The translations under genes were made by a program, and so were the position numbers. From contig JBBQVZ010000002.1 in the NCBI GenBank assembly GCA_038211015.1, positions 1 through 53,813 of the forward strand: a stretch of 53,813 nt of DNA, in the 5' to 3' direction. The stretch's first letter is position 1. Each line of letters starts with the position of its first letter. This document shows positions 1,132 through 22,053 of this stretch, piece by piece. The stretch comes from Actinomycetota bacterium (GTDB lineage: Bacteria > Actinomycetota > UBA4738 > HRBIN12). The notes below the pieces were generated by a model. It searched no databases, was not told where the DNA came from, and saw only the letters and a program-made list of their open reading frames with translations.

Positions 1132-1146
1132 TGCAACTCGCGGACG

Positions 1147-2565: not shown

Positions 2566-2665
2566 CGCGACGGAGGATATCGGACCGCTCTCGCGTCCCG
2601 ACCCGTCGTTCCCGTCGGTTGGTACGGTGTGTCCTTTCACCCGCTCGCCCCAGGAGGTTCGCCAC

Positions 2666-4342: not shown

Positions 4343-4343
4343 C

Positions 4344-5594
4344 TTGATGACGGTCAAGATCACGTCTCCCCAGGCGCTGCAGTGTCGAGAGTGCGGTCAG
4401 CAGTACGCGGTCGAGCCGCTCACGATCTGCGAGGAGTGCTTCGGACCGCTCGAGCCCACATACGACCTGCAGTCGATCGACGGAGAGGTATTCCGCAAAC
4501 AGGCGGAGTCCGGTCCGCGAACGTTGTGGCGCTACGAGTCGCTCTTGCCCGGCGGGCCCGGGCTGGAGCGGATCGACCTGGGCGCCGGGTTCACGCCGCT
4601 CAGACGGGCGACCAACCTGGCCGCTCGTCTGGGTCTCGAGACCCTCTGGATCAAGGACGATTCGGTCAACCCGTCGAACTCGTTCAAGGATCGAGTGGTT
4701 TCGATCGCGATCACGATGGCTCGCGCGTTCGGCTTCGAGGCGGTGTCGTGCGCGTCCACCGGGAACCTGGCGAACGCGACCGCCGCGCACGCCGCCAAGG
4801 CGGGGATGGACTGCTACGTGTTCGTCCCGGACGACCTGGAGCGGGCGAAGATCCTGTCTACCGAGGCGTACGGGGCCAAGGTCGTCCTCGTCGAGGGCAA
4901 CTACGACGACGTGAATCGCTTGTGCTCCGAGGTCGCGGACGCGCTGCCGTGGGCGTTCGTCAACGTGAACATGCGGCCGTACTACGCCGAGGGATCCAAG
5001 TCGCTAGGGTTCGAGACCGCGGAGCAACTGGGGTGGCGCCTCCCGGACCACGTCGTGGTGCCGATCGCGTCAGGGGCGTTGCTGACCAAGATCCATCGCG
5101 CGTTCAGCGAGCTGATCGCGATCGGTGCGGTCGACGAGAAGCCCTACCGTGTGTCCGGAGCGCAGGCCGAGGGATGTTCGCCGGTCGCTCGCGCGTTCGC
5201 CGACGGTGCCGACAACGTCACGCCGGTCAAACCCGACACCATCGCGAGGTCGCTCGCGATAGGCGCGCCCGCGGACGGGTTCTACGCGCTTCAGGTGGCG
5301 CGCACCACCGGCGGAGAGATCGAGGCATGCACCGAAGACGAGATCGTCGACGGCATCCGCCTCCTGGCCGAGACCGAGGGCGTGTTCACCGAGACGGCGG
5401 GGGGCGTGACGATCGCCGTGCTGAAGCGGTTGGTGGAGCGCGGCGTCATCGCTCCCGACGAGGAGACGGTCGCCTACGTCACCGGCAACGGCTACAAGAC
5501 GATCGACGCGCTCGAGGGAAGGATCGAACCCAGCTTCCACGTCAAGCCCGACCTCGACGGCTTCCTCGAAGCTCTCGATCGTCACCCCGCCTGA
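4344..5594 (+). CDS. thrC: threonine synthase-like PLP enzyme with N-terminal zinc ribbon
   Basis: CRECGQQY...CEEC zinc ribbon, then the PLP-lysine block NPSNSFKDR and a ThrC-like fold. Starts at TTG 4344 or ATG 4347, one nt after the ilvD stop. Confidence 0.75.
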   Translation: MMTVKITSPQALQCRECGQQYAVEPLTICEECFGPLEPTYDLQSIDGEVFRKQAESGPRTLWRYESLLPGGPGLERIDLGAGFTPLRRATNLAARLGLETLWIKDDSVNPSNSFKDRVVSIAITMARAFGFEAVSCASTGNLANATAAHAAKAGMDCYVFVPDDLERAKILSTEAYGAKVVLVEGNYDDVNRLCSEVADALPWAFVNVNMRPYYAEGSKSLGFETAEQLGWRLPDHVVVPIASGALLTKIHRAFSELIAIGAVDEKPYRVSGAQAEGCSPVARAFADGADNVTPVKPDTIARSLAIGAPADGFYALQVARTTGGEIEACTEDEIVDGIRLLAETEGVFTETAGGVTIAVLKRLVERGVIAPDEETVAYVTGNGYKTIDALEGRIEPSFHVKPDLDGFLEALDRHPA

Positions 5595-8830: not shown

Positions 8831-9295
8831 CTATGCGAGCACGCGGAAGATGAAGTGGAAGCCGGAACCGTCGGGTAGCACCTTCAACTGCATGCTCCCG
8901 CTCGCGCCCTTGTACTTGCCCCGTCCACCGGTGATAACCATGACGCTGTTGTGCGAGTCGTAGAACGGTCCCTCGACGGTGATCGCTCCACCCTTGAGGA
9001 AGTTGATCCAGCGACATTCCCAGGACCCCTCGGTGGTGTTGATCCGGATGCAGTCCCCTTGATCGCGGCCGACCTTGTTCGTGTTCGTCTCGTCATAGAG
9101 GTCGTTGGCGAACGTGAGGAGATCGCCGCTCGAGTCCCCGGTCGCGCCGGCGTCGATCACCAGGTCCGTGGTCGCTCGCTCGACCACGTCGATCACCGTG
9201 GCCCGCTTCTCGTGGCCGGTCCCGGCCTGTGCCACGTAACCGGCCACGAGCACGACGGCGACCGCTGCGGCCGCGATCGAGATCGTCTTACGCAT
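8831..9295 (-). CDS. secreted allene-oxide-cyclase-barrel-like (dirigent-like) protein
   Basis: Track ORF 8831..9835, trimmed to ATG 9295 (MRKTISIAAAAVAVVLVAGYVAQA signal peptide). The mature part (GDLLTFANDLYD...GRDQGDCIRI...SWECRWINFLKGGAITVEGPFYD...ITGGRGKYKGASG) matches my memory of bacterial AOC-barrel-like proteins. Confidence 0.6.
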   Translation of the reverse strand: MRKTISIAAAAVAVVLVAGYVAQAGTGHEKRATVIDVVERATTDLVIDAGATGDSSGDLLTFANDLYDETNTNKVGRDQGDCIRINTTEGSWECRWINFLKGGAITVEGPFYDSHNSVMVITGGRGKYKGASGSMQLKVLPDGSGFHFIFRVLA

Positions 9296-9460
9296 GTCCC
9301 TGCCCCCTCTCCCATCGGTGCCACGGAGTCTGACACCTTCAGCCTCGTCCCGCTGAGCGCCTCGAACGACCATATTGCATTCCTGATCGGAACAGAACAA
9401 ACTCGCGCTGGTTCGTTCATGGGCGTGTGAGGAAAAGGGTCCGGATCCGTTGGGGGACGA

Positions 9461-10273
9461 GTGGAGCAACCGCTTCCGGCTGAGCGACATCGACGCATCA
9501 AGGAGTTCCTGAGGGAGCATCGAGCGGTCCGCGTTTCGACGCTCGCGGAACTCCTCGCGGTGTCGGAAGTCACCATCCGGCGTGATCTCGAAGAGCTCGA
9601 GCACCGTGGTCTGCTCGAGCGCACGCACGGCGGTGCCGTCTCCATCCATCGCTTGGGTGCCGAGCCCGCGTACGACGAGGCAGCCGGAAGGAGTGCGTCC
9701 CAGAAGAACGCGATCGGCCGAACGGCCGCCGGCCTGGTTCAGCCGGGCGACACGATCTTCCTGAACGGCGGCACCACCACGCTCCAGGTCTTCCGCCACT
9801 TGCAGATCGCGGGCGTGCGGGTCATCACGAACCACGTCGGGATCGCCTCGGAGGCGGCGGATCGCGAAGTCGGCCTGATCGTCGTCGGCGGCGAGTATCG
9901 AGCACCGTCGAACTCATGCGTGGGGAGCTTCGCGACGCGGGCGCTGCGTGGTGTCAACGCCACCCGGGCGCTCATCGGCGTGGAAGGGTTGAGCATCCGA
10001 TCGGGATTGACGACGCCCGTCGAACCGGAGGCGGAGATCGCTCGGGTCATGATCGAGCAGACACAAGGGCCTGTGATCGTGGTCGCGGATTCGACCAAGG
10101 TCGGGACCATCGCGGACTTCTCGATCGCCGGGATCGAGGTGGCGACCGCGCTCGTGACCGACCCAGGCCTGGATGACGTGTATCGCGACGAGCTCACGGC
10201 CGTAGGTGTCGACGTGGTGATCTCCGGGCACGATGCGCTCGTCCGTACGGGAGCGGGACATGCAGAAGGCTGA
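9461..10273 (+). CDS. DeoR-family transcriptional regulator
   Basis: N-terminal HTH (RHRRIKEFLREHRAVRVSTLAELLAVSEVTIRRDLEELE) plus a DeoR C-terminal sensor domain (IFLNGGTTTLQV..., VVADSTKVG). GTG start. Confidence 0.85.
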   Translation: MEQPLPAERHRRIKEFLREHRAVRVSTLAELLAVSEVTIRRDLEELEHRGLLERTHGGAVSIHRLGAEPAYDEAAGRSASQKNAIGRTAAGLVQPGDTIFLNGGTTTLQVFRHLQIAGVRVITNHVGIASEAADREVGLIVVGGEYRAPSNSCVGSFATRALRGVNATRALIGVEGLSIRSGLTTPVEPEAEIARVMIEQTQGPVIVVADSTKVGTIADFSIAGIEVATALVTDPGLDDVYRDELTAVGVDVVISGHDALVRTGAGHAEG

Positions 10274-11024
10274 GTTCGAGGCTGAGGCGGTCAGACTGGT
10301 CGACGCCGCGAACGCCGAAGGCACGACGCTTCGGTTGCTCGGTGCGCTCGCGTTCGCCACCCGGTGCCCGGACCATGCGTACCTTCAGGATCAGCTCGGA
10401 CGTGTGTACACGGACATCGATTTCGGCGGATACGGCAAGCAGGTCCGCCAGATCCAGCAGTTGCTCGCGAGGGAGGGATACGAAGAGGACGCCGCGGTGT
10501 ACGTCGAGTCGCAGGGGTCACGTCTGGTGCTGGAGCACCGGCAGACGAAGCTCCACTTGGATGTCTTCCTCGATCAGCTGGAGTTCTGCCACACCGTCTC
10601 GTGGAACGGCAGGCTGGCGATCGACGACCGAACGATCCCGCTCGCCGAGATGCTGTTGCAGAAGATGCAGATCGTGGAGATCAACGAGAAGGACCTGATC
10701 GACACGATCATGCTGCTCCTCGAGTACCCGCTCGGCGACTCCGACGACGGCCACATCAATATCGGCCTCGTCGCCGACATCTGCGCCAAGGATTGGGGCT
10801 GGTGGCGCACGCTCACCATGAACCTCGACAAGGTCCGTCAGATGGCATCGAGCTATCCCCAGCTGACCGACGAACAGAAGACCCGCGTTTCCGAGCAGGT
10901 TGCGACCGCGCTCGAACGGATCGACGCGATGCCGAAGACCATGGGATGGAAGCTCAGGAGCCGCGTGGGCGATCGCATGAAGTGGTACCAGGACGTCGGT
11001 GAGCTGACGCCGGAGGCAGGCTGA
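10260..11024 (+). CDS. hypothetical protein, possible Pol-beta-fold nucleotidyltransferase
   Basis: The ATG at 10260 overlaps the deoR end by 14 nt. LRLLGALAF...RVYTDIDFGGY resembles a G-x-n-D-x-D nucleotidyltransferase motif. Composition is protein-like and rich in K/E/Q/I. The family assignment is weak. Confidence 0.55.
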   Translation: MQKAEFEAEAVRLVDAANAEGTTLRLLGALAFATRCPDHAYLQDQLGRVYTDIDFGGYGKQVRQIQQLLAREGYEEDAAVYVESQGSRLVLEHRQTKLHLDVFLDQLEFCHTVSWNGRLAIDDRTIPLAEMLLQKMQIVEINEKDLIDTIMLLLEYPLGDSDDGHINIGLVADICAKDWGWWRTLTMNLDKVRQMASSYPQLTDEQKTRVSEQVATALERIDAMPKTMGWKLRSRVGDRMKWYQDVGELTPEAG

Positions 11025-12025
11025 TGCCGCTCTTCAGCAAGCGCGGAACGGCGAAGGGCACCCCCACCCGGCTGTTCTACGCCTGCGACATCCACGGCTC
11101 CGAGCCGACGTACCGCAAGTTCCTGAACGCCGCGAGGTTCTACGAGGTCGATGCGCTCATCTTCGGCGGAGATCTCATGGGCAAGCTGCTCGTCCCGATC
11201 GTCCGAGACAGCGGCGGCACCTACCGAGCCCGGCTCCAGGGGCAGAACCACCACATCACGTCGGATGAGGAGATGAAGCAGTTCAAGAAGGTGCTCCAGA
11301 CGCTGGGGTTCTACTGGCAGGAGATGGATCCCGAGGAGTACCAGAGCTACGAGGGGAACCAGGGGCGGATCGACGACCTCTTCGACGTCTTGGCGAAGGA
11401 GCGCTTGGCGGAGTGGGTCGTGCTCGCCGAGGAACGGCTGAAGGACACTCACGTTCGGATCTTCCTCTGCGGTGGGAACGACGACACCGACGAGGTGCTC
11501 TCAGCGCTCGACGAGACCGCACAGGACCGCGTGGTGAATGCCGAGAACCGCGTCGTTCAGATCGACGACGAGCACTTCGTCGCCACGGTCGGCTACTCGA
11601 CGCCCACGCCGTGGGAGACCCCGAGGGAGCGCAGCGAGGACGAGATCGCCGACGTGATCTCGAAGATCATGGCCGACGTGCCGGATCCCTCGCGTGTCGT
11701 GTTCAACTTCCACTGCCCACCCCTCGATTCCGGTCTCGACACCTGCTTGAAGTTGGATGCTTCGGTCTGGCCCCCGACCCCGGTCCTCGAGAACGGCCAG
11801 CCGATCTACTACGGCGCCGGTTCGCAGGCCGTGACCGACGCGTTGAAGGAGTACCAGCCGACCGTCGGCGTCCACGGGCACATCCACGAATCGCGGGGGG
11901 TCACGAACTATGGACGGACCCTGGCGCTCAATCCAGGAAGCGAGTACGGAGAGGGGGTACTGCGAGGACTCATCGTCACGATCCGCGGAGGAGATGTCGT
12001 CGGGCATCAGTTCACCTCCGGGTAA
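11024..12025 (+). CDS. metallophosphoesterase (calcineurin-like)
   Basis: Motifs ACDIHGS, FGGDLMGK, LCGGNDD and GVHGHIHESRG. The start overlaps the upstream stop (TGATG). Confidence 0.8.
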   Translation: MPLFSKRGTAKGTPTRLFYACDIHGSEPTYRKFLNAARFYEVDALIFGGDLMGKLLVPIVRDSGGTYRARLQGQNHHITSDEEMKQFKKVLQTLGFYWQEMDPEEYQSYEGNQGRIDDLFDVLAKERLAEWVVLAEERLKDTHVRIFLCGGNDDTDEVLSALDETAQDRVVNAENRVVQIDDEHFVATVGYSTPTPWETPRERSEDEIADVISKIMADVPDPSRVVFNFHCPPLDSGLDTCLKLDASVWPPTPVLENGQPIYYGAGSQAVTDALKEYQPTVGVHGHIHESRGVTNYGRTLALNPGSEYGEGVLRGLIVTIRGGDVVGHQFTSG

Positions 12026-12064
12026 GCCCGGCCCGTACCGCACGGAGACTCGAGGGGGTGGGGA

Positions 12065-13699
12065 ATGGCAGAGGCAGTAGCTCCACAGGTATTCACGAGG
12101 CGCGCATCCGGTCTCGTCCGGGTGATGTCGCCCTACTCAGCGTTCATCTACAACATCCTCACGATGGGGGTGATCTTCCCCTGGACCTACCTCTGGGCCC
12201 CCACGGCGTTCCAGGGGTCGAACCTGGTCTTGGGGATCTTGTTCGCGTTCCTGTTCGAGCTACCGATCGCGCTGTCTTACGTGTGGCTCGCGACCGCGCT
12301 CCCTCGATCGGGAGGTGACTACGTGTTCCAGAGCCGCGTCTTCGGCGGCGGTTTTGGGTTCACGGTCGTGTTCGCGTTCTTCGTCGTGTGGATCCTGCAG
12401 TGGGTCGCGCTCTCGGGCTGGTTGCTCGCGACGCTCGGCCTGGCGCCGACCTTCATCGGTCTCGGCGTTACGACGGGAATCGACGGGTTCACGAGCTTCG
12501 GCACGTGGTGCGCGTCGACGAACGGCATCATCATCATCAGCATCCTCAACGCGTTGTTGGCGATGGTCCTGCTGGTGACCGGGTTCAAGAACTACGTCCG
12601 CTTCCAGTACGTGATGTGGTACGCGATCCTGATCTCGTTCGGGATCGTGCTGCTGCTATTCCTGTTCACGAACCCCGGATCGGCCCAAGGCAAGCTGGAC
12701 GGGTTCGCGTCGAGCGTGGACGGTGTCAAGGGGTTCTTCGCCACAGCGAAGTCTGCCGCCGCAGGCGCGGGGGTCAACTTCAACCCGCCGTTCTGGCTGT
12801 TCGGCACCTTGATGGTGGCGCCGATCGCGTGGACGAGCCTGCAGTGGGCCACATATTCCGTGGAACAAGGTGGCGAGATCAAGAACGCGCACGTGTTCCG
12901 CAATCAACTGTTCATCATCGTGGGCTCGCTCGCCACGGTGGCCGCACTGTTGATCGTCCTGGCGCTCGCGCTGCAGAAGGGGTTCGGTCAGGACGGCATC
13001 ATGGTGGCGTCGTCCGGATACTGGTACGGGGTCGGAGAAGCGACGATCGGCGGGAACGTGCTGTTCCCGAACTTCATCGCGATGGGCCTCACCGGGAGCT
13101 GGGTGATCGTCTTACTGATCGGGTTCGGGTTCATCCTGAATTCCTTCCAGATCGTGTGTAACTGCTTCATCGGGACGACGCGGATCATGGTGGCGCAGGG
13201 GCTGGACGGCTTGTTGCCGGACTGGTTCGCGCGCGTCCACCCCAAGTGGAAGACGCCGTTGAACGCGCACATCGCGTACTTCGTCGCGGCCTTGCCGGTC
13301 ATCTACGGGTTCAACAAGGTCGGGAGCTGGACGCGATGGACGCTGGGCGTGACGTTCGCCAACGGGGCGGTGATGGTCCTGTCCGCGTTGGCGGCGGCCC
13401 TGTTGCCGTACCGGGCGAAACAGCTCTACGAGGCGTCCCCGGGTGCGCAGTACAAGTTCGGAAACGTCCCCATGGTGACCGTCTTCGGCATCTTGGGCTT
13501 CCTCCTGGGAGGGTTCATGGTCGTGTCCTTCCTGTTCGTGAAGGATCTGGGCCTGGCGTTCTCGAACGACGCTCTGCCCTACTGGATCGTGGTCGGCACG
13601 GCGGCCTTCGGCCTGATCGTGTATCTGGTCATGAAGTCGGTCCAGGCGAGCAAGGGGATCAAGGTCGAGTACGCGTTCCAGGAGATCCCGCCGGAGTAA
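12065..13699 (+). CDS. APC-superfamily amino acid/amine permease
   Basis: 544 aa and polytopic. LPRSGGDYVFQSRVFG is typical of APC transporters. Confidence 0.85.
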   Translation: MAEAVAPQVFTRRASGLVRVMSPYSAFIYNILTMGVIFPWTYLWAPTAFQGSNLVLGILFAFLFELPIALSYVWLATALPRSGGDYVFQSRVFGGGFGFTVVFAFFVVWILQWVALSGWLLATLGLAPTFIGLGVTTGIDGFTSFGTWCASTNGIIIISILNALLAMVLLVTGFKNYVRFQYVMWYAILISFGIVLLLFLFTNPGSAQGKLDGFASSVDGVKGFFATAKSAAAGAGVNFNPPFWLFGTLMVAPIAWTSLQWATYSVEQGGEIKNAHVFRNQLFIIVGSLATVAALLIVLALALQKGFGQDGIMVASSGYWYGVGEATIGGNVLFPNFIAMGLTGSWVIVLLIGFGFILNSFQIVCNCFIGTTRIMVAQGLDGLLPDWFARVHPKWKTPLNAHIAYFVAALPVIYGFNKVGSWTRWTLGVTFANGAVMVLSALAAALLPYRAKQLYEASPGAQYKFGNVPMVTVFGILGFLLGGFMVVSFLFVKDLGLAFSNDALPYWIVVGTAAFGLIVYLVMKSVQASKGIKVEYAFQEIPPE

Positions 13700-13718
13700 G
13701 CGCCAGGTTCCGGTCCGT

Positions 13719-13750
13719 CGATGGGGCGGGGCTTCGGTCCCGCCCCATCG
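13719..13750 (+). terminator. perfect GC-rich hairpin with UUCG-type loop
   Basis: CGATGGGGCGGG / CCCGCCCCATCG, a perfect 12-bp stem around GCTTCGGT (C-UUCG-G core), 20 nt after the permease stop. It is followed by TTCGT and then the RBS GAGGAGG of the next gene. The T-tract is weak. Confidence 0.55.
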
Positions 13751-13767
13751 TTCGTCGAGGAGGTCCT

Positions 13768-16188
13768 TTGGATCGCGCACGTGCCGTCGTGATCGGCGGC
13801 GGCGTCACCGGGTGCAGCATCCTGCTGCATCTCGCCGAGGCCGGCTGGTCCGACGTTCTCCTTCTGGAGAAGGGGGAGCTCACCAGCGGGTCCACGCACC
13901 ATGCGGCGGGACTCGTCACGATGTTCAACCCGTCGCCGACCATGATGCGGTTCCGTCGTTACTCGATCGAACGCTACCGAGAGCTCGGGGTGTTCGAGAC
14001 GGTGGGGAGCCTGCGGTTCGCCTCCAGCCGGAACCGGCTCCTGGAGCTGAAGCGCGGCGTCTCGCGCGCGAAGGGCATCGGCCTCGACGTCGAGCTCGTG
14101 TCCGCCGACCACGCCCGCCGGTTGATGCCGGCCGCTTCGCCCGAGGAGCTGTACGGCGCCCTGTACGTGCCCGGCGACGGATACCTCGACCCGCACGGCG
14201 CGACCCACGCGATGGCGGATGCCGCGCGTGCGCTCGGAGCCACGGTGCGCACCCACACCCGGGTCACGGGGGTGGAGCTGTCGTCGCGACGCGAGGTCGT
14301 GGCGGTCCTCACGGACCGGGGTCGCATCGAGACCGAGGTCGTGGTGAACGCCGCGGGGATCTGGGCGCCGCGCATCGCCTCGATGGTCGGAGCCTTCGTG
14401 CCGTCGACGCCGGTGGACCATCAGCACGTCGCCCTGAAGGCCGTGCTGGGCTCGGAGCTTCCGGGTGACATGCCGTGCTTCCGCGACCCGGACAACCTCG
14501 TCTACGGGAAGGCCGAGGCGGGTGGGGTGCTCTTCGGCGGGTACGAGCCGAACCCCGTCGCTCGGTGGGTCGACGGCGTCCCGTGGGAGCACGGCGGGAG
14601 GGCGCTCGCTCCCGACATGGGTCGGTTCGAACAGCTGATGGAGGGGGCCGCCCGCCGGTTCCCGTTCGTGGCCGACGCCGAGATCGTGAAGCTGGTGTGC
14701 CACCCAGACGCGATGACGCCGGACGCGAACCCGCTCCTCGGCCCCGTGCCCGGCGTGCGGGGGTTCCACATGGCGGCCGGCCTCTCCCTGAACGGGTTCG
14801 GCGCCGCGGGAGGTATCGGCAAGACGATCGCGGAGTGGGTCGTCGCCGGCGAGCCAGAGCTCGATGTCCTCGCTTATCGGTCATGGCGGTTCGGCGACGT
14901 CTACCGCGATCCGTCGTGGGCCGCCGAGGTCGCTCGAGAGACGTACCGGTACTACTACGAGCTGCGGTATCCGTTCGACCAGGACGAGTTCGGGAGGCCG
15001 AGACGCGAGAGTCCATTGATATCGCGGATGCAGGATGCCGGCGCCGTCTTCGGTGCGAAGAACGGTTGGGAACGGGCGGAGTACGTGGCCCCCGGCGAAC
15101 CATGGCGCCGGGCGGGACCGGACCAACGCGCGTGGGGGTGGACCGAGCCTCCGTTCCACCCTCGGGTCGCGGACGAGCACCGGGCCGTACGGGAACGAGC
15201 CGGGATCTTCGACATGACGTCGTTCGGGAAGATCGAGGTGGGGGGTACGGACGCGTTGGCCGTGCTCGAACGGGTGTCGGACAACCTGGTCGATCGGCCG
15301 GTCGGGAGCGTGGTGTACACGCAGTTCCTTGAGCGTCGTGGCGGGATCGTCGCCGACGTGACCGTCACGCGCCTCGCGGAGGATCGGTTCCGCGTGATCA
15401 CCGGGTCGGGCACGATCGACGCCGATCTCGGTTGGATCCGCGCGAACGTCCGGGAAGATGAGATCGTCGAGCTGCGCGACGTCACGCAGGAGCTGGCCGT
15501 CATCGGCCTCTGGGGTCCGTCCGCACCCGACGTGCTGGGGGCGTTGACCGAGGACGACGTCTCGAGCGCAGGGTTCCCGTTCATGCGGGCGCGGTCGATC
15601 GCCGTTCGAGGAGCGCCTGTTCTCGCGCAGAGGGTGACGTACGTTGGCGAGCTCGGGTGGGAGCTGTACGTCGCCCCCGAGTGGGCGACCCAGGTGTGGG
15701 ACCGGCTGATCGAAGCAGGAGCGGCGCACGGCATCGCGGTCGCCGGATACCGCGCGCTCGACTCGCTCCGGATGGAGAAGGGGTACCGCTACTTCGGGAC
15801 CGATCTGACGATGCTGGACGATCCCTTCGAGGCGGGGCTCGCCGCTTGTGTCCGCCTGGAGAAGGGCGGGTTCGTGGGGCGAGATGCCCTCATGGCGAAG
15901 CGAGAGGTCGGCGCTCCTTCGCGCCGGCTCCTGACGCTACTCGTGGGCGAGCACGATTACGTGCCGATCTACGGCGGCGAGGCCGTCGCATCGGACGGCG
16001 AGGTGGTTGCCCGTCTCCGCAGCTGCGCGTACGGCTTCACGATCCGGCGGAACGTGGCGTTCGCGTACCTGCCCGCGCGGTTCGGGCCGGGTGACGTCGT
16101 CGATGTCGACGTGTTCGGCGATCGGATCCGCGCCGATGTCGGCGAGGATGCCGTCGTGGGCGCCGGCCCCGGCTGGTCGGAGGCGTAG
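13768..16188 (+). CDS. dimethylglycine/sarcosine-dehydrogenase-type flavoprotein (DAO domain fused to GcvT-like folate-binding domain)
   Basis: Track ORF 13246..16188, trimmed to TTG 13768 after GAGGAGG; the upstream part overlaps the permease. Motifs: AVVIGGGVTGCS, GSTHHAAGL, C-terminal VTYVGELGWELY and RMEKGYR. Confidence 0.85.
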   Translation: MDRARAVVIGGGVTGCSILLHLAEAGWSDVLLLEKGELTSGSTHHAAGLVTMFNPSPTMMRFRRYSIERYRELGVFETVGSLRFASSRNRLLELKRGVSRAKGIGLDVELVSADHARRLMPAASPEELYGALYVPGDGYLDPHGATHAMADAARALGATVRTHTRVTGVELSSRREVVAVLTDRGRIETEVVVNAAGIWAPRIASMVGAFVPSTPVDHQHVALKAVLGSELPGDMPCFRDPDNLVYGKAEAGGVLFGGYEPNPVARWVDGVPWEHGGRALAPDMGRFEQLMEGAARRFPFVADAEIVKLVCHPDAMTPDANPLLGPVPGVRGFHMAAGLSLNGFGAAGGIGKTIAEWVVAGEPELDVLAYRSWRFGDVYRDPSWAAEVARETYRYYYELRYPFDQDEFGRPRRESPLISRMQDAGAVFGAKNGWERAEYVAPGEPWRRAGPDQRAWGWTEPPFHPRVADEHRAVRERAGIFDMTSFGKIEVGGTDALAVLERVSDNLVDRPVGSVVYTQFLERRGGIVADVTVTRLAEDRFRVITGSGTIDADLGWIRANVREDEIVELRDVTQELAVIGLWGPSAPDVLGALTEDDVSSAGFPFMRARSIAVRGAPVLAQRVTYVGELGWELYVAPEWATQVWDRLIEAGAAHGIAVAGYRALDSLRMEKGYRYFGTDLTMLDDPFEAGLAACVRLEKGGFVGRDALMAKREVGAPSRRLLTLLVGEHDYVPIYGGEAVASDGEVVARLRSCAYGFTIRRNVAFAYLPARFGPGDVVDVDVFGDRIRADVGEDAVVGAGPGWSEA

Positions 16189-16190
16189 CC

Positions 16191-17093
16191 ATGCCAACGG
16201 GCATCGACGATGTCGTCGAGCGGGTGACGCTCTGGCGGGGAGACGCCGTCGACGTCACCCCATTGTCGGGCGGCCTCACCAATCAGATCTACCTGGTGAC
16301 CCGCGGCGACGAGCGATTCGTCGTGCGGATCCCCGGCCCGTCCACGGAGTTGCTGGCGGTCGATCGCGCCAACGAGCGGCACAATGCCGAGGCCGCGGCC
16401 ACCACCGGCGTCTCCCCGCCGATCCTCGAGTACCTCGAGGACTGGTCGGTCATGGTGCTCGCGTTCATCGACGGCGAGACCATGTCGGCCGAACGGCTGC
16501 GTGCGCCGTCGATGCCGGCCAGGATGGCCGCATCGCTGCATCGCCTGCATGCCGGCCCCCCGTTCCTCCAGGACTTCGACATGTTCCGCATCACCGAGCG
16601 TTACCTCGGGGTGGTCGCCGATTGCGACGTGCGGATCCCGGAAGGGTTCCGCGATCGGATGGAGACCGTCGTCGACGTGGAGCGCGTCCTCGCGGTGAAC
16701 GCCCAGCCACGCGTGCCGTGCCACAACGACCTCCTCGCCGAGAACTACATCGACGACGGCAGGCAGCTCTGGGTCATCGACTTCGAGTACAGCGGGAACG
16801 ACGATCCGTGTTTCGAGCTCGGCGACACGGCGCAAGAGTGTGGGTTCGACGCCGAGCTGAAGGCGGCGCTCTGCGCCGCGTACTTCGGGCGCGACGATCC
16901 GATCCAACTAGCGCGGATGGAGCTCTACGCGATGATGGCCGACGTGGGATGGACGCTGTGGGCCGCGATCCAGGCGGAGATCTCGGACATCGATTTCGAC
17001 TTCTGGGGATGGGCCGTCGAGCGGTGGGATCGCGCGGTGGGCGCGATGGACGGACCGGGGTTCGCGGAGTTCCGCCGAGAGGCGACGCGATGA
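16191..17093 (+). CDS. choline/ethanolamine-kinase-fold phosphotransferase
   Basis: Catalytic blocks HNDLLAENYI and VIDFEYSGNDDPCFELGD. Starts 2 nt after the upstream stop. Confidence 0.8.
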   Translation: MPTGIDDVVERVTLWRGDAVDVTPLSGGLTNQIYLVTRGDERFVVRIPGPSTELLAVDRANERHNAEAAATTGVSPPILEYLEDWSVMVLAFIDGETMSAERLRAPSMPARMAASLHRLHAGPPFLQDFDMFRITERYLGVVADCDVRIPEGFRDRMETVVDVERVLAVNAQPRVPCHNDLLAENYIDDGRQLWVIDFEYSGNDDPCFELGDTAQECGFDAELKAALCAAYFGRDDPIQLARMELYAMMADVGWTLWAAIQAEISDIDFDFWGWAVERWDRAVGAMDGPGFAEFRREATR

Positions 17094-17389
17094 GGGTAGT
17101 GGCTACCCCCGAGGTGGTCGAGTTCATCCGCGAGAGCGGCGGGCAGATCTTCGTGTGGACCGTGACGATGGAGTACGGGTACGCGCGTGGGACCGTGTTC
17201 GTCCTGGAGGCGTCCGTCGACTCGCCCGGAGCGGAACGGGAGTTCCTGCGGTTCGGCGGCGAGGGCATCGAGGTCCTGTACGACCCGGGCGAGCGCGGCA
17301 CACCGGATGCGCTGCACCTCGCGTTGCGAGGGCGCGTTCGCAAGCGGGTCGTGGCCCTCTGGAACGGGCACAGCTTCGCGAGCGAGTGA
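17090..17389 (+). CDS. hypothetical 99-aa protein
   Basis: ATGA overlap with the kinase stop. This is the last 99 codons of track ORF 16007..17389 (MRVVATPEVVEFIRESGGQIFVW...) and has a protein-like composition. I recognise no family. Confidence 0.5.
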   Translation: MRVVATPEVVEFIRESGGQIFVWTVTMEYGYARGTVFVLEASVDSPGAEREFLRFGGEGIEVLYDPGERGTPDALHLALRGRVRKRVVALWNGHSFASE

Positions 17390-17493
17390 CTCGCGAGCCC
17401 TGCGCTCAGGGTCTGATCGTGATCGTCGACGACCGCGCGGATCCCGCGATCGCGGAACAACCGCTTGGCGCATCGAGAACGGGAGCGCGTCGC

Positions 17494-19932
17494 TCACACG
17501 CGGATCCGCTCGCCCTCCGGATCCCAGAGCGGTTCGTCGGCGACGGCGGCCGGCACCCGCTCGCCGAACACCTCGACCTCGAACGTGGTTCCCGGGATCG
17601 CCAGCTCGATCGGCAGGTAGGCGTAGGCGATCGATGCGCCGACCGTGTAGCCGAGGCCGCCGCTCGTCACGCGGGAGACCACCTCGCCGGAGCGGAACAC
17701 CGGTTCGTTCCCGAGCGTCATCGCGCGCGCGTCTGCGAGCGTCAGACACGAGAGCCTTCGCGTCACCCCACGCGCCAGCACAACCTCCAGGGCCTCGTTC
17801 CCGATGAACCCCGGCACGTCCATCCTGACCGCGAACCCGAGCCCCGCCTCGAACGGATGCTCCTCGGGGGTGATGTCCGAGCCCCACGCCCGATAGCCTT
17901 TCTCGAGACGCAGCGAATCGATCGCGCGATACCCGGCCGGCGTCATACCGAACGGCTCACCGGCCGCGACGAGCGTGTCCCAGAGCGCCCCGGCGAACTC
18001 CACGTCGGGGTAGAGCTCCCAGCCGAGCTCGCCGACGTAGGTCACCCGCAGCGCGAGGCACGGCACGTCGCCCACCACGATCTCGCGCGCGGTCAGGTAC
18101 GGGAACGCCTCGTTCGACAGATCGTCCTCGCTCACCTTCGACACGATGTCGCGGGCGCGCGGTCCCCACAGTCCGAAGCAGCCCTTCGCGCCGGTCACGT
18201 CGCGGACCGTCACCCCGTCGCGCCGGCCGTCCCCGAGCTGCTTGCGGATCCAGCCGATGTCGTGGTTGCCGAACGCCGTCCCGCTCACCAGCAGGTAACG
18301 GTCGTCCCCGATCCGGGTGGCGGTCAGGTCGCATTCGATGCCGCCGCGGCCGTTCAGCATCTGCGTGTAGACCACGGTGCCGATGGGGCGATCCACGTCG
18401 TTCGCCGACAGGCGCTCCAGGAACGCGGTCGCGTCGGGCCCGCTCACCTCGATCTTCGCGAAGCTCGACTCGTCGAAGAGTCCCGCGCGCTCGCGCGTGG
18501 CCACGTGCTCGGCCGCGATCGCGCTCGACCAGTGTTCGCCCGCCCATCCCCGCGGCCGTAGCCGATCGAGCGACGGATCATCGTTCGACCTGAACCAGTT
18601 GGCGCGCTCCCAGCCGGATTTCTCGCCGAACTCCGCGCCGAGGGCCGCCAGGCGGGCATACGTTGGCGCCGTCTTGAGCGGCCGTCCCGCCTGCCGCTCC
18701 TCGCCCGGGTAGTGGATGTCGTAGTACGTCGCGTACACCTCGTACGCGCGCTCGCATGCGTAGCGCCGCGACCGGTAGTGCCGGCCGAAGCGACGGATGT
18801 CCATCTTCCACAGGTCGTACTCGGGCTCGCCGTTCACGATCCAGTCGGCCATGACCTTGCCGACGCCCCCCGCGCCGGCGATCCCGTGCGCGCAGAACCC
18901 GGCCGCCACGAAGAACCCGCGGACGTCGGACTCGCCCAGGATGAACTCGCCGTCGGGGGTGAACGCCTCGGGGCCGTTGATCATCGTCACGACCTCGGCG
19001 TTCTGCAGCACCGGCACCAGCGCGAACGCGTTCTCGGCGAGCGTCTCGAACCGCTCCCAGTCGTCGGGCAGGAGTTGATGGTTGAAGTCGGCGGGCGGGC
19101 CGTCCCGCACCGCCCAGGGCGCGGGGTGCCGTTCGTAGCCACCCATCACCAACCCGCCCCCGGCCTCGCCGCGGAAGTACACGAGCCGATCTGGATCGCG
19201 CATCGTCGGCAGGTCGACGCTCCCGCCGGGGACGGGCTTGGTGAGCAGATACTGATGCGCGAACGGCACGACGGGCACCTCGACGCCGGCCATGCGACCG
19301 AGCTGGTTCGCGTACATCCCCCCGGCGTTCACGACGACGTCCGAGGTGATCGGACCGTGTTCTTCCGTGCGCACACCTCGCACGCGGCCGTCGGCAACGT
19401 CGATGCCCGTGACACGCGTGTTCGTGCGGATCTCGGCTCCGCGTCTGCGCGCGCCCTCGGCGAGCGCGAGTGTCAGGTTGGTCGGATCCAGGTGCCCGTC
19501 GGTCGGGATGAACGCCGCCCCCTGGATGCCGGTCGGATCGAACAGGGGGAACCTCGCGATCGCGGCCTCCGTGGAGATGACGTCGAGCGGCAGGCCGAAC
19601 GTGTGCGCCCAGCCCTCTTGCCGCCGCAGCTCCTGCATCCGCTCGTCCGAGGACGCGAGCCGCAACGAGCCGACCTCGTGCCAGCCGGGGTCCACGCCCG
19701 TCTCGGCCGCCAATCGCCGGTACAGCTCGGCGCCGTACATCATCATCCGCGTGAGCGATACGCTGGAGCGCAGCTGCCCCACGAGTCCGGCCGAGTGGAA
19801 CGTGGAGCCCGATGTCAGCTCGCCGCGATCGAGCAACACGACGTCCTGCCATCCGAGCTCGGTCAGGTGGTACGCGATGCTGGCGCCGGCGACACCGCCG
19901 CCGATGACGATCGCGCGGAAGCTCTCAACCAT
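17494..19932 (-). CDS. dimethylglycine/sarcosine-dehydrogenase-type flavoprotein (second paralog)
   Basis: Track ORF 17494..20025, trimmed to ATG 19932 (MVESFRAIVIGGGVAGAS). Motifs: GSTFHSAGL, VTYVGELGWELY, RLEKGYR. Confidence 0.85.
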   Translation of the reverse strand: MVESFRAIVIGGGVAGASIAYHLTELGWQDVVLLDRGELTSGSTFHSAGLVGQLRSSVSLTRMMMYGAELYRRLAAETGVDPGWHEVGSLRLASSDERMQELRRQEGWAHTFGLPLDVISTEAAIARFPLFDPTGIQGAAFIPTDGHLDPTNLTLALAEGARRRGAEIRTNTRVTGIDVADGRVRGVRTEEHGPITSDVVVNAGGMYANQLGRMAGVEVPVVPFAHQYLLTKPVPGGSVDLPTMRDPDRLVYFRGEAGGGLVMGGYERHPAPWAVRDGPPADFNHQLLPDDWERFETLAENAFALVPVLQNAEVVTMINGPEAFTPDGEFILGESDVRGFFVAAGFCAHGIAGAGGVGKVMADWIVNGEPEYDLWKMDIRRFGRHYRSRRYACERAYEVYATYYDIHYPGEERQAGRPLKTAPTYARLAALGAEFGEKSGWERANWFRSNDDPSLDRLRPRGWAGEHWSSAIAAEHVATRERAGLFDESSFAKIEVSGPDATAFLERLSANDVDRPIGTVVYTQMLNGRGGIECDLTATRIGDDRYLLVSGTAFGNHDIGWIRKQLGDGRRDGVTVRDVTGAKGCFGLWGPRARDIVSKVSEDDLSNEAFPYLTAREIVVGDVPCLALRVTYVGELGWELYPDVEFAGALWDTLVAAGEPFGMTPAGYRAIDSLRLEKGYRAWGSDITPEEHPFEAGLGFAVRMDVPGFIGNEALEVVLARGVTRRLSCLTLADARAMTLGNEPVFRSGEVVSRVTSGGLGYTVGASIAYAYLPIELAIPGTTFEVEVFGERVPAAVADEPLWDPEGERIRV

Positions 19933-20857
19933 CGAGAACGGGTTCCGATGCCGCCGCATGCAACCACGCGTCGAACCTATCGTCCGATGCCGTCGACAGG
20001 CAGCGCGCGAAGTGCCGGTCGGCATAGTCCACGTAGTCGAAGTCGAGCGTCGAGATCGCCTGCTGCACGACGCCCCACATGGCCTCGCGGAAGTCCGACA
20101 TGATCCGCATCAGCTGCAGGCGCGCGCGGTACACATCGGTCACGTCGCCGAAATAGAGGCGGAGCAGGAGCTCCTGCGCCTCAGGGCTGAGTCCGTTGTT
20201 GATCGAGAGGTTGCCGAGGTCGAAGAAGAGGTCGCCCATCCCACCGTACTCGTAGTCGACGATCCAGACGTGATCGCCATCGAGGAGGAAGTTGGCGTTG
20301 AGCAGGTCGTTGTGACACGGCCGGTCCGCGAGCGGCTGCTTCGCGAACGCGCCTTCGATGTCAACAGCCTTCGCGTGGATCTCGTCGAACGCGGCCGGCG
20401 CGACCACGCCGCGAGCTTCGGCGATCGCCCGGTAGTCCTCCACGATGCGGAACACCGGGAACGCGGATGGGATGGGAGGACACGCGTGGATCGCCTTGAC
20501 GGAGCGGATCACGGCCCCGAGCACGTCCTCGCGCTCGAGGTCCTCCTCGGGGATGTGTGAGCCCTGCACGAACCGGGTGATCAGCGCTGAGCGCTCCGGC
20601 AGGTAGGCGAACACTTCGGGAGCAACGCCGGCCCGGGCGGCCGCCGACGCCGCCTCGTTCTCGGCGGCGCGATCGATGCCGAGGAGGTCGGTGTCCTTGC
20701 CCGACAGCCGGACCACGAACGACTCTCCGCCGATGTCGACCCGGAAGTTGCGGTTCGTGATCCCGATGGTGATCGGGGTGATCTCGGGCTCCAGGCCCTC
20801 CCACTCAGGGATCGCCGCGATCGTCGCGGCGAGCGCGGGATCCTGGTCGGCGTCCAC
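19925..20857 (-). CDS. choline/ethanolamine-kinase-fold phosphotransferase (second paralog)
   Basis: HNDLLNANFL and IVDYEYGGMGDLFFDLGN. GTG start at 20857; its 3' end overlaps the dehydrogenase start by 8 nt. Confidence 0.8.
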   Translation of the reverse strand: MDADQDPALAATIAAIPEWEGLEPEITPITIGITNRNFRVDIGGESFVVRLSGKDTDLLGIDRAAENEAASAAARAGVAPEVFAYLPERSALITRFVQGSHIPEEDLEREDVLGAVIRSVKAIHACPPIPSAFPVFRIVEDYRAIAEARGVVAPAAFDEIHAKAVDIEGAFAKQPLADRPCHNDLLNANFLLDGDHVWIVDYEYGGMGDLFFDLGNLSINNGLSPEAQELLLRLYFGDVTDVYRARLQLMRIMSDFREAMWGVVQQAISTLDFDYVDYADRHFARCLSTASDDRFDAWLHAAASEPVLDG

Positions 20858-20863
20858 GCGCGG

Positions 20864-20893
20864 ACGCTACCGCCGCTCTTCGTTCCTGGTCAA
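20864..20893 (-). promoter_or_regulatory. candidate promoter TTGACC-N18-TAGCGT for the kinase/dehydrogenase pair
   Basis: On the minus strand, TTGACC lies at 20893-20888 and TAGCGT at 20869-20864. The GTG start at 20857 follows 6 nt later, implying a leaderless mRNA. This is hexamer matching only. Confidence 0.3.
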
Positions 20894-21004
20894 GCGTGAA
20901 CGAACATGATCGTTCCGGGAGCTGGCGCCTCAAGACGAGACCGAGGGCTTCGAGCTCGTCTCGCCCCAGGGGACCCATGACGGTAGTGGGTCAGATTGAC
21001 TGGG

Positions 21005-21789
21005 CTAGCTGATGCGTCCCGACGCGAGTTCGTGAAGTTGACCTTCGACCTTCTCAGCCATCTCTTTGGCCTCCGCCGATTCGCGAAGCAGTCCGGCAAC
21101 GGCGCTTCCCAGCGCACGATGGAGTTCGTCTGGATCGAGCGATCGCACGAGCGCATCGTCGAACGGATCCAGGACGTCGGCGGGCAGCTCGTCGAAGTCC
21201 CTGCCGTATGTGCCATCGAGCCCTCGGCGCCGACAAGCAAGGGCGAGTGCGTGATCGCGTAACGCGCTGATCCAATACTCCGCCTGCCGATGCCGACCCC
21301 GCTCGATGCAGGATCGTGCATGCAGTGCGTGGTGGACGGCGTATCCGAAGAGTTCGTGTGCGGGAGGCGGCGGACCGAAAGGTTGTTCGACGGCCTCCCC
21401 GAACAGCAGCTTGAACTTCGGCCCGCCCGCACCGAATTCGGAGCTGGCGTGAGTGAGAGATCGAGCTCCAGGCAGTTGGGGAGCAGGAACACCCGGTAGA
21501 TGATCGGCCCGCTGGGGAGGTCGAACAGTTGGACCGCGTCGAACTCACGAACGACGGCCCGGCTCCAGGCTTCCAGCACCTCAGTCACAGGCACGTCGTC
21601 CGCCACGGCGAACATGAGGTCGAGATCCGACCACTCATCCCCCTCATCGTGTGCAAGCGAGCCGAGGACAGCGCCGCCGACCACTCGGGGGTCAGACGAC
21701 GCCATGTCCAGGACCCGATCCCGTAGGCGGTTGCGGTCGCTGATGCTGAACACGTTGCGATTCTGGATCACGGGCCGAGGCAGGAACAA
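21005..21789 (-). pseudogene. nucleotidyltransferase (aminoglycoside/MNT-like), reading frame broken by a frameshift near 21440-21460
   Basis: The N-terminal frame (track ORF 20890..21789) reads VGGAVLGSLAHDEGDEWSDLDLMF...LELDLSLTPA, then turns Ser/Arg-rich. Shifting one base gives a clean continuation, EFGAGGPKFKLLFGEAVEQPFGPPPPAHELFGYAVHHALHARSCIERGRHRQAEYWISALRDHALALACRRRGLDGTYGRDFDELP..., ending at TAG 21005-21007. Confidence 0.7.
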
Positions 21790-21824
21790 GATTCAACCGA
21801 ACCTGCCATCCCCTACTCAGCGGG

Positions 21825-21852
21825 TTGACACCGCCTGACCTGCCCGTACACT
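21825..21852 (+). promoter_or_regulatory. promoter TTGACA-N16-TACACT of the ilv operon
   Basis: TTGACA at 21825-21830 and TACACT at 21847-21852. The leader-peptide ATG begins 9 nt after the -10 hexamer. Confidence 0.55.
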
Positions 21853-21861
21853 GGCAGGACC

Positions 21862-21912
21862 ATGTCGACAAGAGAGCTGTTCGGACGCAGCGTCCTCGTA
21901 CTTATTCGGTAG
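21862..21912 (+). CDS. ilv operon leader peptide [16 protein letters not shown]
   Basis: A 16-codon ORF ending in five consecutive branched-chain codons (GTC CTC GTA CTT ATT). It sits between the promoter and an intrinsic terminator upstream of ilvB. Confidence 0.7.
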
Positions 21913-21949
21913 GCGCGGGCGGGCCATGTGGCCTGCGACCGCGCCGATG

Positions 21950-21975
21950 CCCCTCGGAGTCCCGGGGGGTTTTTT
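21950..21975 (+). terminator. intrinsic terminator (attenuator) upstream of ilvB
   Basis: CCCCTCGG-AGTC-CCGGGGGG, an 8-bp stem with one G-U pair, followed directly by TTTTTT (21970-21975). This is the only clear T-tract terminator I saw in the window. Confidence 0.75.
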
Positions 21976-22053
21976 CTACCCCAAGATCCACAGGAAGCAC
22001 CAGCGGAACAGCGAGCGAACGGATCGGGAGCGATCCGAGAGGAGGAGAGGACC

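Follow-up and report, generated by a model that had tools for sequence, protein, structure and literature searches.

The flavoenzymes dimethylglycine dehydrogenase (DMGDH), dimethylglycine oxidase (DMGO), and sarcosine dehydrogenase (SARDH) form a family typified by rat and human DMGDH (PDB 4p9s and 5l46) and Arthrobacter globiformis DMGO (PDB 1pj5), with the characterised substrates of the enzymes matched here, dimethylglycine and sarcosine, both bearing a carboxylate. Two members of this family, which we call DH1 and DH2, are encoded in a 53,813 nt stretch of contig JBBQVZ010000002.1 from an Actinomycetota bacterium (assembly GCA_038211015.1; hereafter the window), each beside a gene for a choline/ethanolamine-kinase-family protein, K1 and K2 respectively, in two units that converge on one another. 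DH1 and DH2 resemble the characterised enzymes in their four-domain architecture and in possessing the covalent flavin adenine dinucleotide (FAD) histidine, the His/Tyr dyad, and the folate-site aspartate, and N-demethylation with passage of the one-carbon unit to tetrahydrofolate (THF) is expected of them. In contrast to the DMGDH/DMGO family, however, their genes travel with those of a choline-family kinase, of an amine transporter, and of a phosphatase, never with betaine or sarcosine genes, and their substrate is predicted to be a phospho-ester rather than a carboxylate. The coordinates of the original prediction cover only part of the unit, with four further plus-strand genes lying directly upstream, and the evidence leans slightly towards the whole of 9461–20857 being a single cluster, under DeoR control, for the catabolism of small N-methylated amino alcohols.

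A precedent for phosphorylation ahead of demethylation is provided by MthK and MthB of Eubacterium limosum, described in 2025, in which choline is demethylated to THF only as phosphocholine, giving dimethylaminoethanol phosphate, with the phosphate proposed by the authors to be the acidic group that such demethylases need (PMC12155760). The likeness of the K/DH locus to MthK/MthB/MthC/MthA is that a kinase first makes an amino-alcohol phosphate and the methyl carbon ends on THF, with the MthB demethylase accepting only the phospho-form and the kinase and demethylase genes being adjacent, and co-localised in many genomes (PMC12155760). This resemblance is functional only. MthB is a cobalamin-dependent methyltransferase of the MttB superfamily and MthK is serine-kinase-like (PMC12155760), neither being related to the K and DH proteins, and Pfam and NCBIfam scans of the window cluster proteins and of the scanned recurrent neighbours returned no MttB-family protein, corrinoid protein, or cobalamin:THF methyltransferase. 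Furthermore, MthB operates anaerobically on quaternary phosphocholine and stops at dimethylaminoethanol phosphate, whereas flavin oxidation is restricted to tertiary and secondary amines, and the K/DH system would therefore continue where MthB stops. Full-text literature searches for a pathway pairing a kinase with a DMGDH-type enzyme, or for aerobic catabolism of methylated ethanolamines, found none, the only precedent being the cobalamin-dependent one.

The original prediction had instead likened the locus to ACAD10/11, in which a kinase of the APH fold and an acyl-CoA dehydrogenase act on a phosphorylated intermediate whose phosphate is the leaving group. The shared logic of kinase plus flavoenzyme holds, but the comparison is loose and MthK/MthB is much closer, as the phosphate at the K/DH locus is proposed to serve as a binding handle that is later removed by a separate phosphatase. 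Membership of the ACAD10/11 type is also contradicted by the Pfam assignment of DH1 and DH2, which have the DAO fold and not that of an acyl-CoA dehydrogenase.

Both flavoenzymes carry the Pfam domains DAO, FAO_M, GCV_T, and GCV_T_C in a single chain of ~800 residues, with all four above gathering score, and DH2 matches rat DMGDH, human DMGDH, and A. globiformis DMGO over its full length (E 1e-163 to 1e-167). The motifs AVVIGGGVTGCS, GSTHHAAGL, and VTYVGELGWELY are found in DH1, and AIVIGGGVAGAS, GSTFHSAGL, and again VTYVGELGWELY in DH2. The aspartate of the DMGO segment VRSD552, which we take to be a folate-site residue, is retained within IECD in DH2 and IVAD in DH1, and the DMGO dyad His225/Tyr259 is retained within AHQY and LVYFR in DH2, and DHQH and LVYGK in DH1. 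A catalytic His/Tyr dyad has been described for human DMGDH, in which His91 carries the covalent FAD (PMC5082570). The histidine of GSTFH in DH2 aligns with His48 of DMGO in a phmmer alignment, with that of GSTHH in DH1 at the same position, which agrees with the suggestion in the original prediction that the histidine of the S-T-x-H block is the covalent-FAD residue. Because the DMGDH architecture is present and the equivalents of His48, His225/Tyr259, and Asp552 are kept, DH1 and DH2 are expected from sequence to be active THF-linked oxidative N-demethylases. Neither reaches an NCBIfam equivalog cutoff, and their substrate is therefore not readable from family models, whilst the gene context argues against dimethylglycine or sarcosine. 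When the FAD domains of 61 kinase-linked enzymes were compared with those of rat DMGDH and DMGO, a few hydrophobic changes were seen, and the sole clear change was a replacement of His by Gly or Ala at DH2 position 353 (window 18874–18876; Ala at the aligned DH1 position), with HAGG/HSAG in rat DMGDH and DMGO becoming GAGG in the kinase-linked enzymes, just before the conserved GAGGVG segment. This position presumably lies near the carboxylate-binding Lys348 of monomeric sarcosine oxidase, and the substitution may enlarge the substrate pocket.

The two kinases both score above the Pfam gathering thresholds for Choline_kinase (PF01633, cutoff 29 bits) and APH, with K1 favouring the former (90.2 against 76 bits) and K2 the latter (68.7 against 62.2 bits). 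The Brenner motif HxDxxxxN is invariant in the kinase alignment as CHNDLLxxN, as is the Mg-binding segment (I/V)D(F/Y)EY, with these reading HNDLLAENYI...IDFEYSGNDD in K1 and HNDLLNANFL...VDYEYGGMGD in K2. The best NCBIfam model for both is GntI (NF041256), to which K2 scores 274.7 bits and K1 196.1 bits; because these values fall below the equivalog cutoff of 357 bits, the kinases are judged from sequence to be related to GntI but not to be GntI. The closest PDB match of K2 is 3dxq, a choline/ethanolamine kinase family protein (E 1.9e-41), followed by LicA of Streptococcus pneumoniae (4r77). These proteins, the eukaryotic choline and ethanolamine kinases, and GntI share with K1 and K2 the fold, the HNDLLxxN Brenner motif, and the D-x-E-Y segment, and they act on small amino-alcohol-type substrates, as is expected for K1 and K2. 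However, identity to the characterised choline/ethanolamine kinases and GntI is about 30% or less, and the context of K1 and K2 is catabolic, whereas that of the known enzymes is lipid, teichoic-acid, or toxin biosynthesis. A reading as antibiotic-resistance kinases was considered and rejected, with no APH or Mph resistance model matched; the only NCBIfam matches were to GntI, thiamine kinase, LxmK, homoserine kinase, and CotS, and the only PDB matches to choline/ethanolamine kinases. The original prediction, which had assigned both proteins to the choline/ethanolamine kinase family and had named a place in the resistance clades as fatal to its proposal, is thus upheld here.

As DH1 and DH2 are only 44% identical, and K1 and K2 only 34%, the two pairs are old paralogues rather than products of a recent tandem duplication, an origin that was rejected on these values and on the presence of orthologues of each in other phyla. 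Within the window, K1 begins 2 nt past the stop codon of DH1, which itself starts with TTG, 8 nt 3' of a GAGGAGG-like ribosome-binding site, whilst K2 and DH2 overlap by 8 nt (ATGGTTGA) and are translationally coupled. The two units are separated by a convergent gap of 104 nt (17390–17493). These junctions, along with every coordinate and peptide motif given in the original prediction, proved correct against the open reading frame (ORF) table and on direct reading of the junctions.

The pairing of kinase and flavoenzyme genes is far beyond chance. A scan of GTDB, one genome per species, with the kinase alignment yielded 596 confirmed relatives. The 80 best loci were retained, and tblastn of the window proteins against them located 96 kinase genes. 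The nearest DMGDH-type gene lies within 300 bp of 50 of these and between 300 bp and 3 kb from a further 21, placing 71 of the 96 within 3 kb, whilst in 19 cases no such neighbour was seen on a contig too short to tell. Among adjacent pairs in the tblastn results the kinase precedes the dehydrogenase in 35 and follows it in 11, with four convergent and one divergent, and by type 40 loci hold K2-DH2, eight K1-DH1, and two mixed pairs. Carriers include Actinomycetota (among them Gaiellales, Rubrobacter, and Solirubrobacterales), Chloroflexota (Anaerolineales, Limnocylindria, and Chloroflexia), Dormibacterota, and cultured Alphaproteobacteria, with adjacency kept across at least four phyla. The conserved pairing of the original prediction is borne out by this survey, across phyla and in either order, but its ratio is not strictly 1:1, as some Anaerolineales loci contain two dehydrogenases and one kinase. 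An exhaustive search of representatives of 50%-identity clusters gave 364 kinase relatives at E<=1e-30.

Cultured carriers were found by tblastn of annotated plasmid and replicon records, and comprise Ruegeria sp. THAF33, Salipiger abyssi, Labrenzia sp., and Nonomuraea gerenzanensis. In Ruegeria sp. THAF33 a DeoR gene, a ProU-type betaine/choline ATP-binding cassette (ABC) transporter, the kinase, an 815-aa 'FAD-dependent oxidoreductase', and an inositol-monophosphatase-family protein occur together, and in S. abyssi the DeoR gene, oxidoreductase, and kinase. Locus tags at these sites include FIU92_RS18715, RS18720, and RS18725 in Ruegeria sp. THAF33 and Ga0080574_RS02150 and RS02155 in S. abyssi. 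The complete window-type cluster, consisting of u263 (a protein of nucleotidyltransferase fold), the metallophosphoesterase MPE, an APC permease, DH1, K1, and s99 (a 99-aa protein), then DH2 and K2, is present in about ten actinobacterial metagenome-assembled genomes (MAGs), with a rearranged form in Chloroflexota.

The genes that accompany the pairs were surveyed by filtering the ORFs of 86 loci by codon-position GC, clustering them, and annotating representatives. The commonest module is permease, kinase, dehydrogenase, often followed in Dormibacterota, Chloroflexota, and Ruegeria by a HisN-like phosphatase of the inositol monophosphatase (IMPase) family, which scores 263.7 bits to the histidinol-phosphatase model (cutoff 275), an enzyme type that acts on an amino-alcohol phosphate. 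Fusions among metagenomic proteins tie the same activities directly to a K2-type kinase, with the ethanolamine transporter EutH fused in P0393 (714 aa) and P0381, an APC permease in P0386, a HAD-type hydrolase in P0308, and the start of a DAO domain in the fusion call P0399. In two Rubrobacter genomes a EutH gene lies between the kinase and the dehydrogenase (Pfam E 7e-120). The kinase is thereby linked to phosphatases of three unrelated families (metallophosphoesterase, IMPase/HisN-like, and HAD hydrolase) and to transporters of three families for choline/ethanolamine-like amines (APC, EutH, and ProU-type). The module is joined by a DeoR gene in Actinomycetota, Anaerolineales, Ruegeria, and Salipiger, and the one in the window is likely to encode the regulator of the cluster. 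APC1, the permease of the window, is likely the importer of the amine substrate, with orthologues of 54–94% identity adjoining DH1-type genes in Actinomycetota and Chloroflexota, and MPE, found together with APC1, u263, and DH1 at 11 loci, is a candidate phosphatase or phosphodiesterase of the pathway.

The K-DH module is often embedded in clusters resembling that of GlnA4-type ethanolamine utilisation. An ACT-type amino-acid permease is found near K-DH in 29 loci, an aldehyde dehydrogenase in 16, and a glutamine-synthetase-like enzyme in 11, with a short-chain dehydrogenase and a PuuD-like gamma-glutamyl amidohydrolase also recurrent, and these are also the genes described for Streptomyces, which uses ethanolamine through gamma-glutamylation by the GlnA4 pathway (PMC6529630). 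Whilst these genes flank many K-DH modules, the described Streptomyces GlnA4 cluster (PMC6529630) has neither the kinase nor a DMGDH-type enzyme, and none of the scanned window ORFs is of the GlnA4 type.

On this evidence it is very likely that kinase and flavoenzyme act in the same pathway, which breaks down a small N-methylated amino alcohol. From sequence and gene context we infer the identity of the substrate, the order of the reactions (kinase, dehydrogenase, phosphatase), how the two pairs divide the work, and what MPE, u263, and s99 do, and we modestly favour a model in which N-methyl- and N,N-dimethyl-ethanolamine are imported, phosphorylated, demethylated to THF as phospho-esters, and dephosphorylated to ethanolamine. 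In this model, the APC permease would bring in the amine, with K1 and/or K2 phosphorylating its hydroxyl with ATP. The resulting phospho-base would be an acidic mimic of dimethylglycine or sarcosine, with the phospho-ester, by analogy, supplying the amino alcohol with an acidic group equivalent to the carboxylate. DH1 and DH2 would then oxidise the N-methyl group via the covalent FAD and pass the one-carbon unit to THF in the GcvT-like domain to give 5,10-methylene-THF, and the presence of two enzymes would allow conversion from dimethyl to monomethyl to primary amine. A phosphoesterase would finally free ethanolamine, this being the metallophosphoesterase here and a HisN-like IMPase or HAD hydrolase in other genomes.

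Several features point to this order. The presence of a kinase and a phosphatase in one module is sensible only if the intervening enzyme uses the phospho-form, and the transporter-kinase fusions place the kinase immediately after uptake. EutH, APC, and ProU-type transporters point to choline/ethanolamine-like amines, and two dehydrogenases beside a single kinase in some Anaerolineales loci fit a compound that is phosphorylated once and then demethylated twice. Regulators of the DeoR/GlpR type commonly sense phosphorylated metabolites; this agrees with a phospho-intermediate being the inducer, which the DeoR protein probably senses. The proposal in the original prediction that the kinase makes the real substrate of the flavoenzyme is thus supported by the recurring phosphatases, the DeoR gene, the transporter- and phosphatase-kinase fusions, and the ethanolamine-gene neighbours. 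Its suggestion of phosphocholine as a candidate, however, fails on chemistry, as a flavin amine dehydrogenase requires a tertiary or secondary amine and cannot oxidise a quaternary nitrogen, which is unable to form an iminium; the secondary and tertiary phospho-bases remain.

Some observations weigh against the phosphorylate-demethylate-dephosphorylate model. Six of the 96 kinase genes lack a DMGDH-type neighbour although the contig extends far enough to either side, the FAD domains of the 61 kinase-linked enzymes show no Arg or Lys gained by the family relative to DMGDH and DMGO, and no ethanolamine-utilisation genes were identified among the scanned ORFs of the window. A second kinase is superfluous in a linear pathway if the product of DH1 is already phosphorylated, although it might let imported monomethylethanolamine be used directly, or each pair may have a compound of its own. 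Additionally, MPE might be a phosphodiesterase that serves another purpose, and u263 has no place in the model.

The same logic of kinase, THF-demethylase, and phosphatase may serve another N-methylated hydroxy-amine, such as N-methyl-aminopropanol, N-methylserinol, N-methylserine or N-methylhomoserine, or an N-hydroxy compound like the GntI substrate, with the two pairs perhaps handling two compounds rather than successive steps. That the best kinase model, GntI, phosphorylates an N-hydroxyguanidine and not ethanolamine is in keeping with such a substrate, as is the possession by K1/DH1 of its own permease, phosphoesterase, and u263, which an independent pathway would have. The HisN-like phosphatases are nearest to histidinol-phosphatase, whose amino-alcohol phosphate is larger, and the aldolase, transaldolase, and aminotransferase genes of Chloroflexota loci hint at larger carbon skeletons. 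The EutH linkage and fusion, the ACT-type permeases, and the GlnA4-type clusters, however, point specifically to ethanolamine-type compounds, and we regard a different substrate as unlikely, though deserving of some weight. The dehydrogenase might alternatively act first, on the free N-methyl amino alcohol, with the kinase then trapping ethanolamine or feeding phospholipid synthesis or a phospho-lyase. Choline and ethanolamine kinases do normally feed biosynthesis, the original prediction allowed that the kinase 'removes the product', and the class-III and class-I/II aminotransferase-family genes of some loci could act on phosphoethanolamine. Phosphorylation of the product would, however, be made futile by the recurring phosphatase, which is even fused to the kinase, and the transporter-kinase fusions put the kinase directly after uptake. 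With the named substrates of the matched DMGDH/DMGO enzymes all acidic, a free amino alcohol would lack the acidic group, and no phospho-lyase is consistently present, leaving this order of reactions quite improbable.

A function of the flavoenzymes as ordinary dimethylglycine or sarcosine dehydrogenases beside unrelated kinases, making for example phosphocholine for cell-surface decoration, would account for the DMGDH/DMGO matches at E about 1e-165 and the retention of all catalytic residues. It is nonetheless very improbable given the translational coupling in the window (2-nt gap, 8-nt overlap), the adjacency in at least four phyla in both orders with pairs consistent with orthology, and the kinase-DAO fusion call; furthermore, no NCBIfam equivalog cutoff is reached, and the clusters lack betaine/choline oxidation genes, LicC/LicD-type genes, and sarcosine oxidase. 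We hold it equally doubtful that the dehydrogenases deaminate the primary amine phosphoethanolamine to phosphoglycolaldehyde in an alternative ethanolamine pathway involving no demethylation. Such a reaction would suit the linkage to EutH and ethanolamine clusters, and the phospho-aldehyde could be consumed by the aldolase and transaldolase that Anaerolineales encode downstream of DH, but it would be redundant with the adjacent GlnA4-type pathway and would leave an intact GcvT/THF domain with its conserved folate-site aspartate without a role, and all characterised DMGDH-family enzymes matched act on N-methyl groups.

The accessory proteins u263 and s99 are less readily placed. Homologues of u263 fall into more than 1845 clusters, all named 'hypothetical' and without a Pfam domain, and PDB sequence searches gave no significant match for u263 or for MPE. 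The AlphaFold2 (AF2) model of u263 (pLDDT 90.6) has as its top Foldseek matches in the PDB MenT1, ANT(2'')-Ia, and LnuA (E 3.6e-4, TM 0.38–0.5), with G28, D52-x-D54, and D101/D105 invariant among its residues. The gene is always alongside those of MPE and APC1 in the surveyed loci, with the u263/MPE pair a constant companion of the APC1/DH1 module, and in the window the start of MPE overlaps the stop of u263, with the longest u263 ORF beginning at 10233 and public gene calls at 10260, giving a protein of 254–263 aa. On the basis of the model, u263 and the coupled MPE may together provide a nucleotidyl-transfer and phosphodiesterase step in the pathway. The original prediction left the 99-aa ORF without a family; s99 is assigned to Pfam CC_Se_fam (PF28096) by a precomputed match on record, as are several of its 62 homologues. 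Its score to the NCBIfam CC/Se model is 21.9 bits against a cutoff of 40, and the window protein contains no cysteine, the name-giving CC/Se motif being absent, whilst its AF2 model (pLDDT 88) shows a weak match to the IscA/SufA fold (E 1.3e-3). The s99 gene is real and conserved, and is present in 12 related loci. In other genomes s99 occurs, sometimes as two tandem copies, in a small operon with an amino-acid permease that converges on K-DH (locus L087 13399–13689; also L014 and L017).

The features of the cluster are listed in Table 1. A promoter and terminator scan of 9000–22000 gave nothing above shuffle expectation and nothing in the convergent gap.

Table 1. Genes of the predicted catabolic cluster, with positions in the window.
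Feature	Position	Strand	Basis
DeoR/GlpR-family transcriptional regulator	9461..10273	+	Pfam HTH_DeoR + DeoRC; NCBIfam GlpR/AgaR-like, below cutoffs
u263, pol-beta-type nucleotidyltransferase fold	10260..11024	+	Predicted structure, Foldseek, conserved residues
MPE, metallophosphoesterase	11024..12025	+	Weak Pfam Metallophos/Metallophos_2/_3 matches; DxH, GD, GNDD, GHxH motifs
APC1, APC-superfamily permease	12065..13699	+	Pfam AA_permease_2
DH1, DMGDH/DMGO-family FAD/tetrahydrofolate N-demethylase (predicted), 806 aa	13768..16188	+	DAO+FAO_M+GCV_T+GCV_T_C
K1, choline/ethanolamine-kinase-family kinase, 300 aa	16191..17093	+	Pfam Choline_kinase, APH
s99, 99-aa protein assigned to CC_Se_fam (PF28096)	17090..17389	+	Overlaps K1 by ATGA
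DH2, DMGDH/DMGO-family FAD/tetrahydrofolate N-demethylase (predicted), 812 aa	17494..19932	-	DAO+FAO_M+GCV_T+GCV_T_C
K2, choline/ethanolamine-kinase-family kinase, 310 aa	19925..20857	-	Pfam APH, Choline_kinase

Just upstream of K2 on the same strand lies a 299-aa ORF (20890–21789, minus strand) with an N-terminal GS...DxD nucleotidyltransferase-like motif, only sub-threshold Pfam matches, and a Ser/Arg-rich C-terminal half. It has no counterpart in any related locus and was left out of the system, and may be a degraded or lineage-specific gene. The region 10–5594 contains an amidase, a separate DAO-family oxidoreductase (1147–2820, minus strand), ilvD, and a PALP enzyme with an N-terminal zinc ribbon, with the DAO/ilvD/PALP block syntenic with the K-DH module in related MAGs (e.g. 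locus L087 16278–20936). The rest of the window consists of housekeeping genes, including ilvD, ilvBNC, leuA, a large NAD-glutamate dehydrogenase, signalling proteins, and similar genes, and its nearest relatives are uncultured Actinomycetota MAGs.

Other arrangements were seen around the kinases elsewhere. In Anaerolineales, the genes after K2-DH2 encode a transaldolase-like protein, a class II fructose-bisphosphate aldolase, and a class I/II (HisC-like) aminotransferase (L029 13451–18467, L033 13700–14905, L035, L073 13491–15568, and L078 13410–16240), and phosphoethanolamine in these bacteria may, instead of losing its phosphate, undergo transamination to phosphoglycolaldehyde and then condensation. 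In Chloroflexota, a conserved block upstream of APC2-K-DH encodes an AAA/MoxR-like ATPase, a VWA-domain protein, a 182-aa membrane protein, and an atypical 487-aa class II aldolase-like protein (L059 1412–8100; also L062, L075, L076, and L080). Distant kinase homologues (about 30% identity) occur two in tandem on plasmids of Agrobacterium, Rhizobium, and Shinella (L084 6012–10698, the R. rhizogenes pTi; L085, a Shinella plasmid), beside a HisN-like phosphatase, a Zn-dependent hydrolase, an amidase, a peptide-type ABC transporter, and DeoR regulators. They form a distinct kinase/phosphatase module that lacks a DMGDH-type enzyme and is possibly opine-related.

Whilst the DMGDH/DMGO and choline/ethanolamine kinase families are themselves known, none of the papers found describes their combination, its accessory genes, or the phospho-ester substrates proposed here. 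There is an even chance that the loci specify a widespread aerobic pathway, in soil Actinomycetota, Chloroflexota, and Dormibacterota and in marine Roseobacters, by which N-methylated ethanolamines are catabolised only as their phosphate esters. Its substrates would then include the dimethylaminoethanol released by anaerobic choline demethylation, and the pathway would be a missing aerobic sink for methylated ethanolamines from that source and from phospholipid head groups. Mechanistically, it would be a flavin-based, independent reinvention of the phosphorylate-before-demethylate strategy of the cobalamin-dependent MthK/MthB, and a second case of phosphate as a recognition handle, suggesting a general shortcut for adapting acid-binding enzymes to alcohols. 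As DMGDH-type enzymes are the textbook demethylases of carboxylate substrates, a large phospho-ester subfamily would widen the chemistry of the family, and would give a function to many gene pairs generically named 'FAD-dependent oxidoreductase' and 'phosphotransferase'. The cultured carriers Ruegeria sp. THAF33, Salipiger abyssi, Labrenzia, and Nonomuraea gerenzanensis make this hypothesis directly testable.

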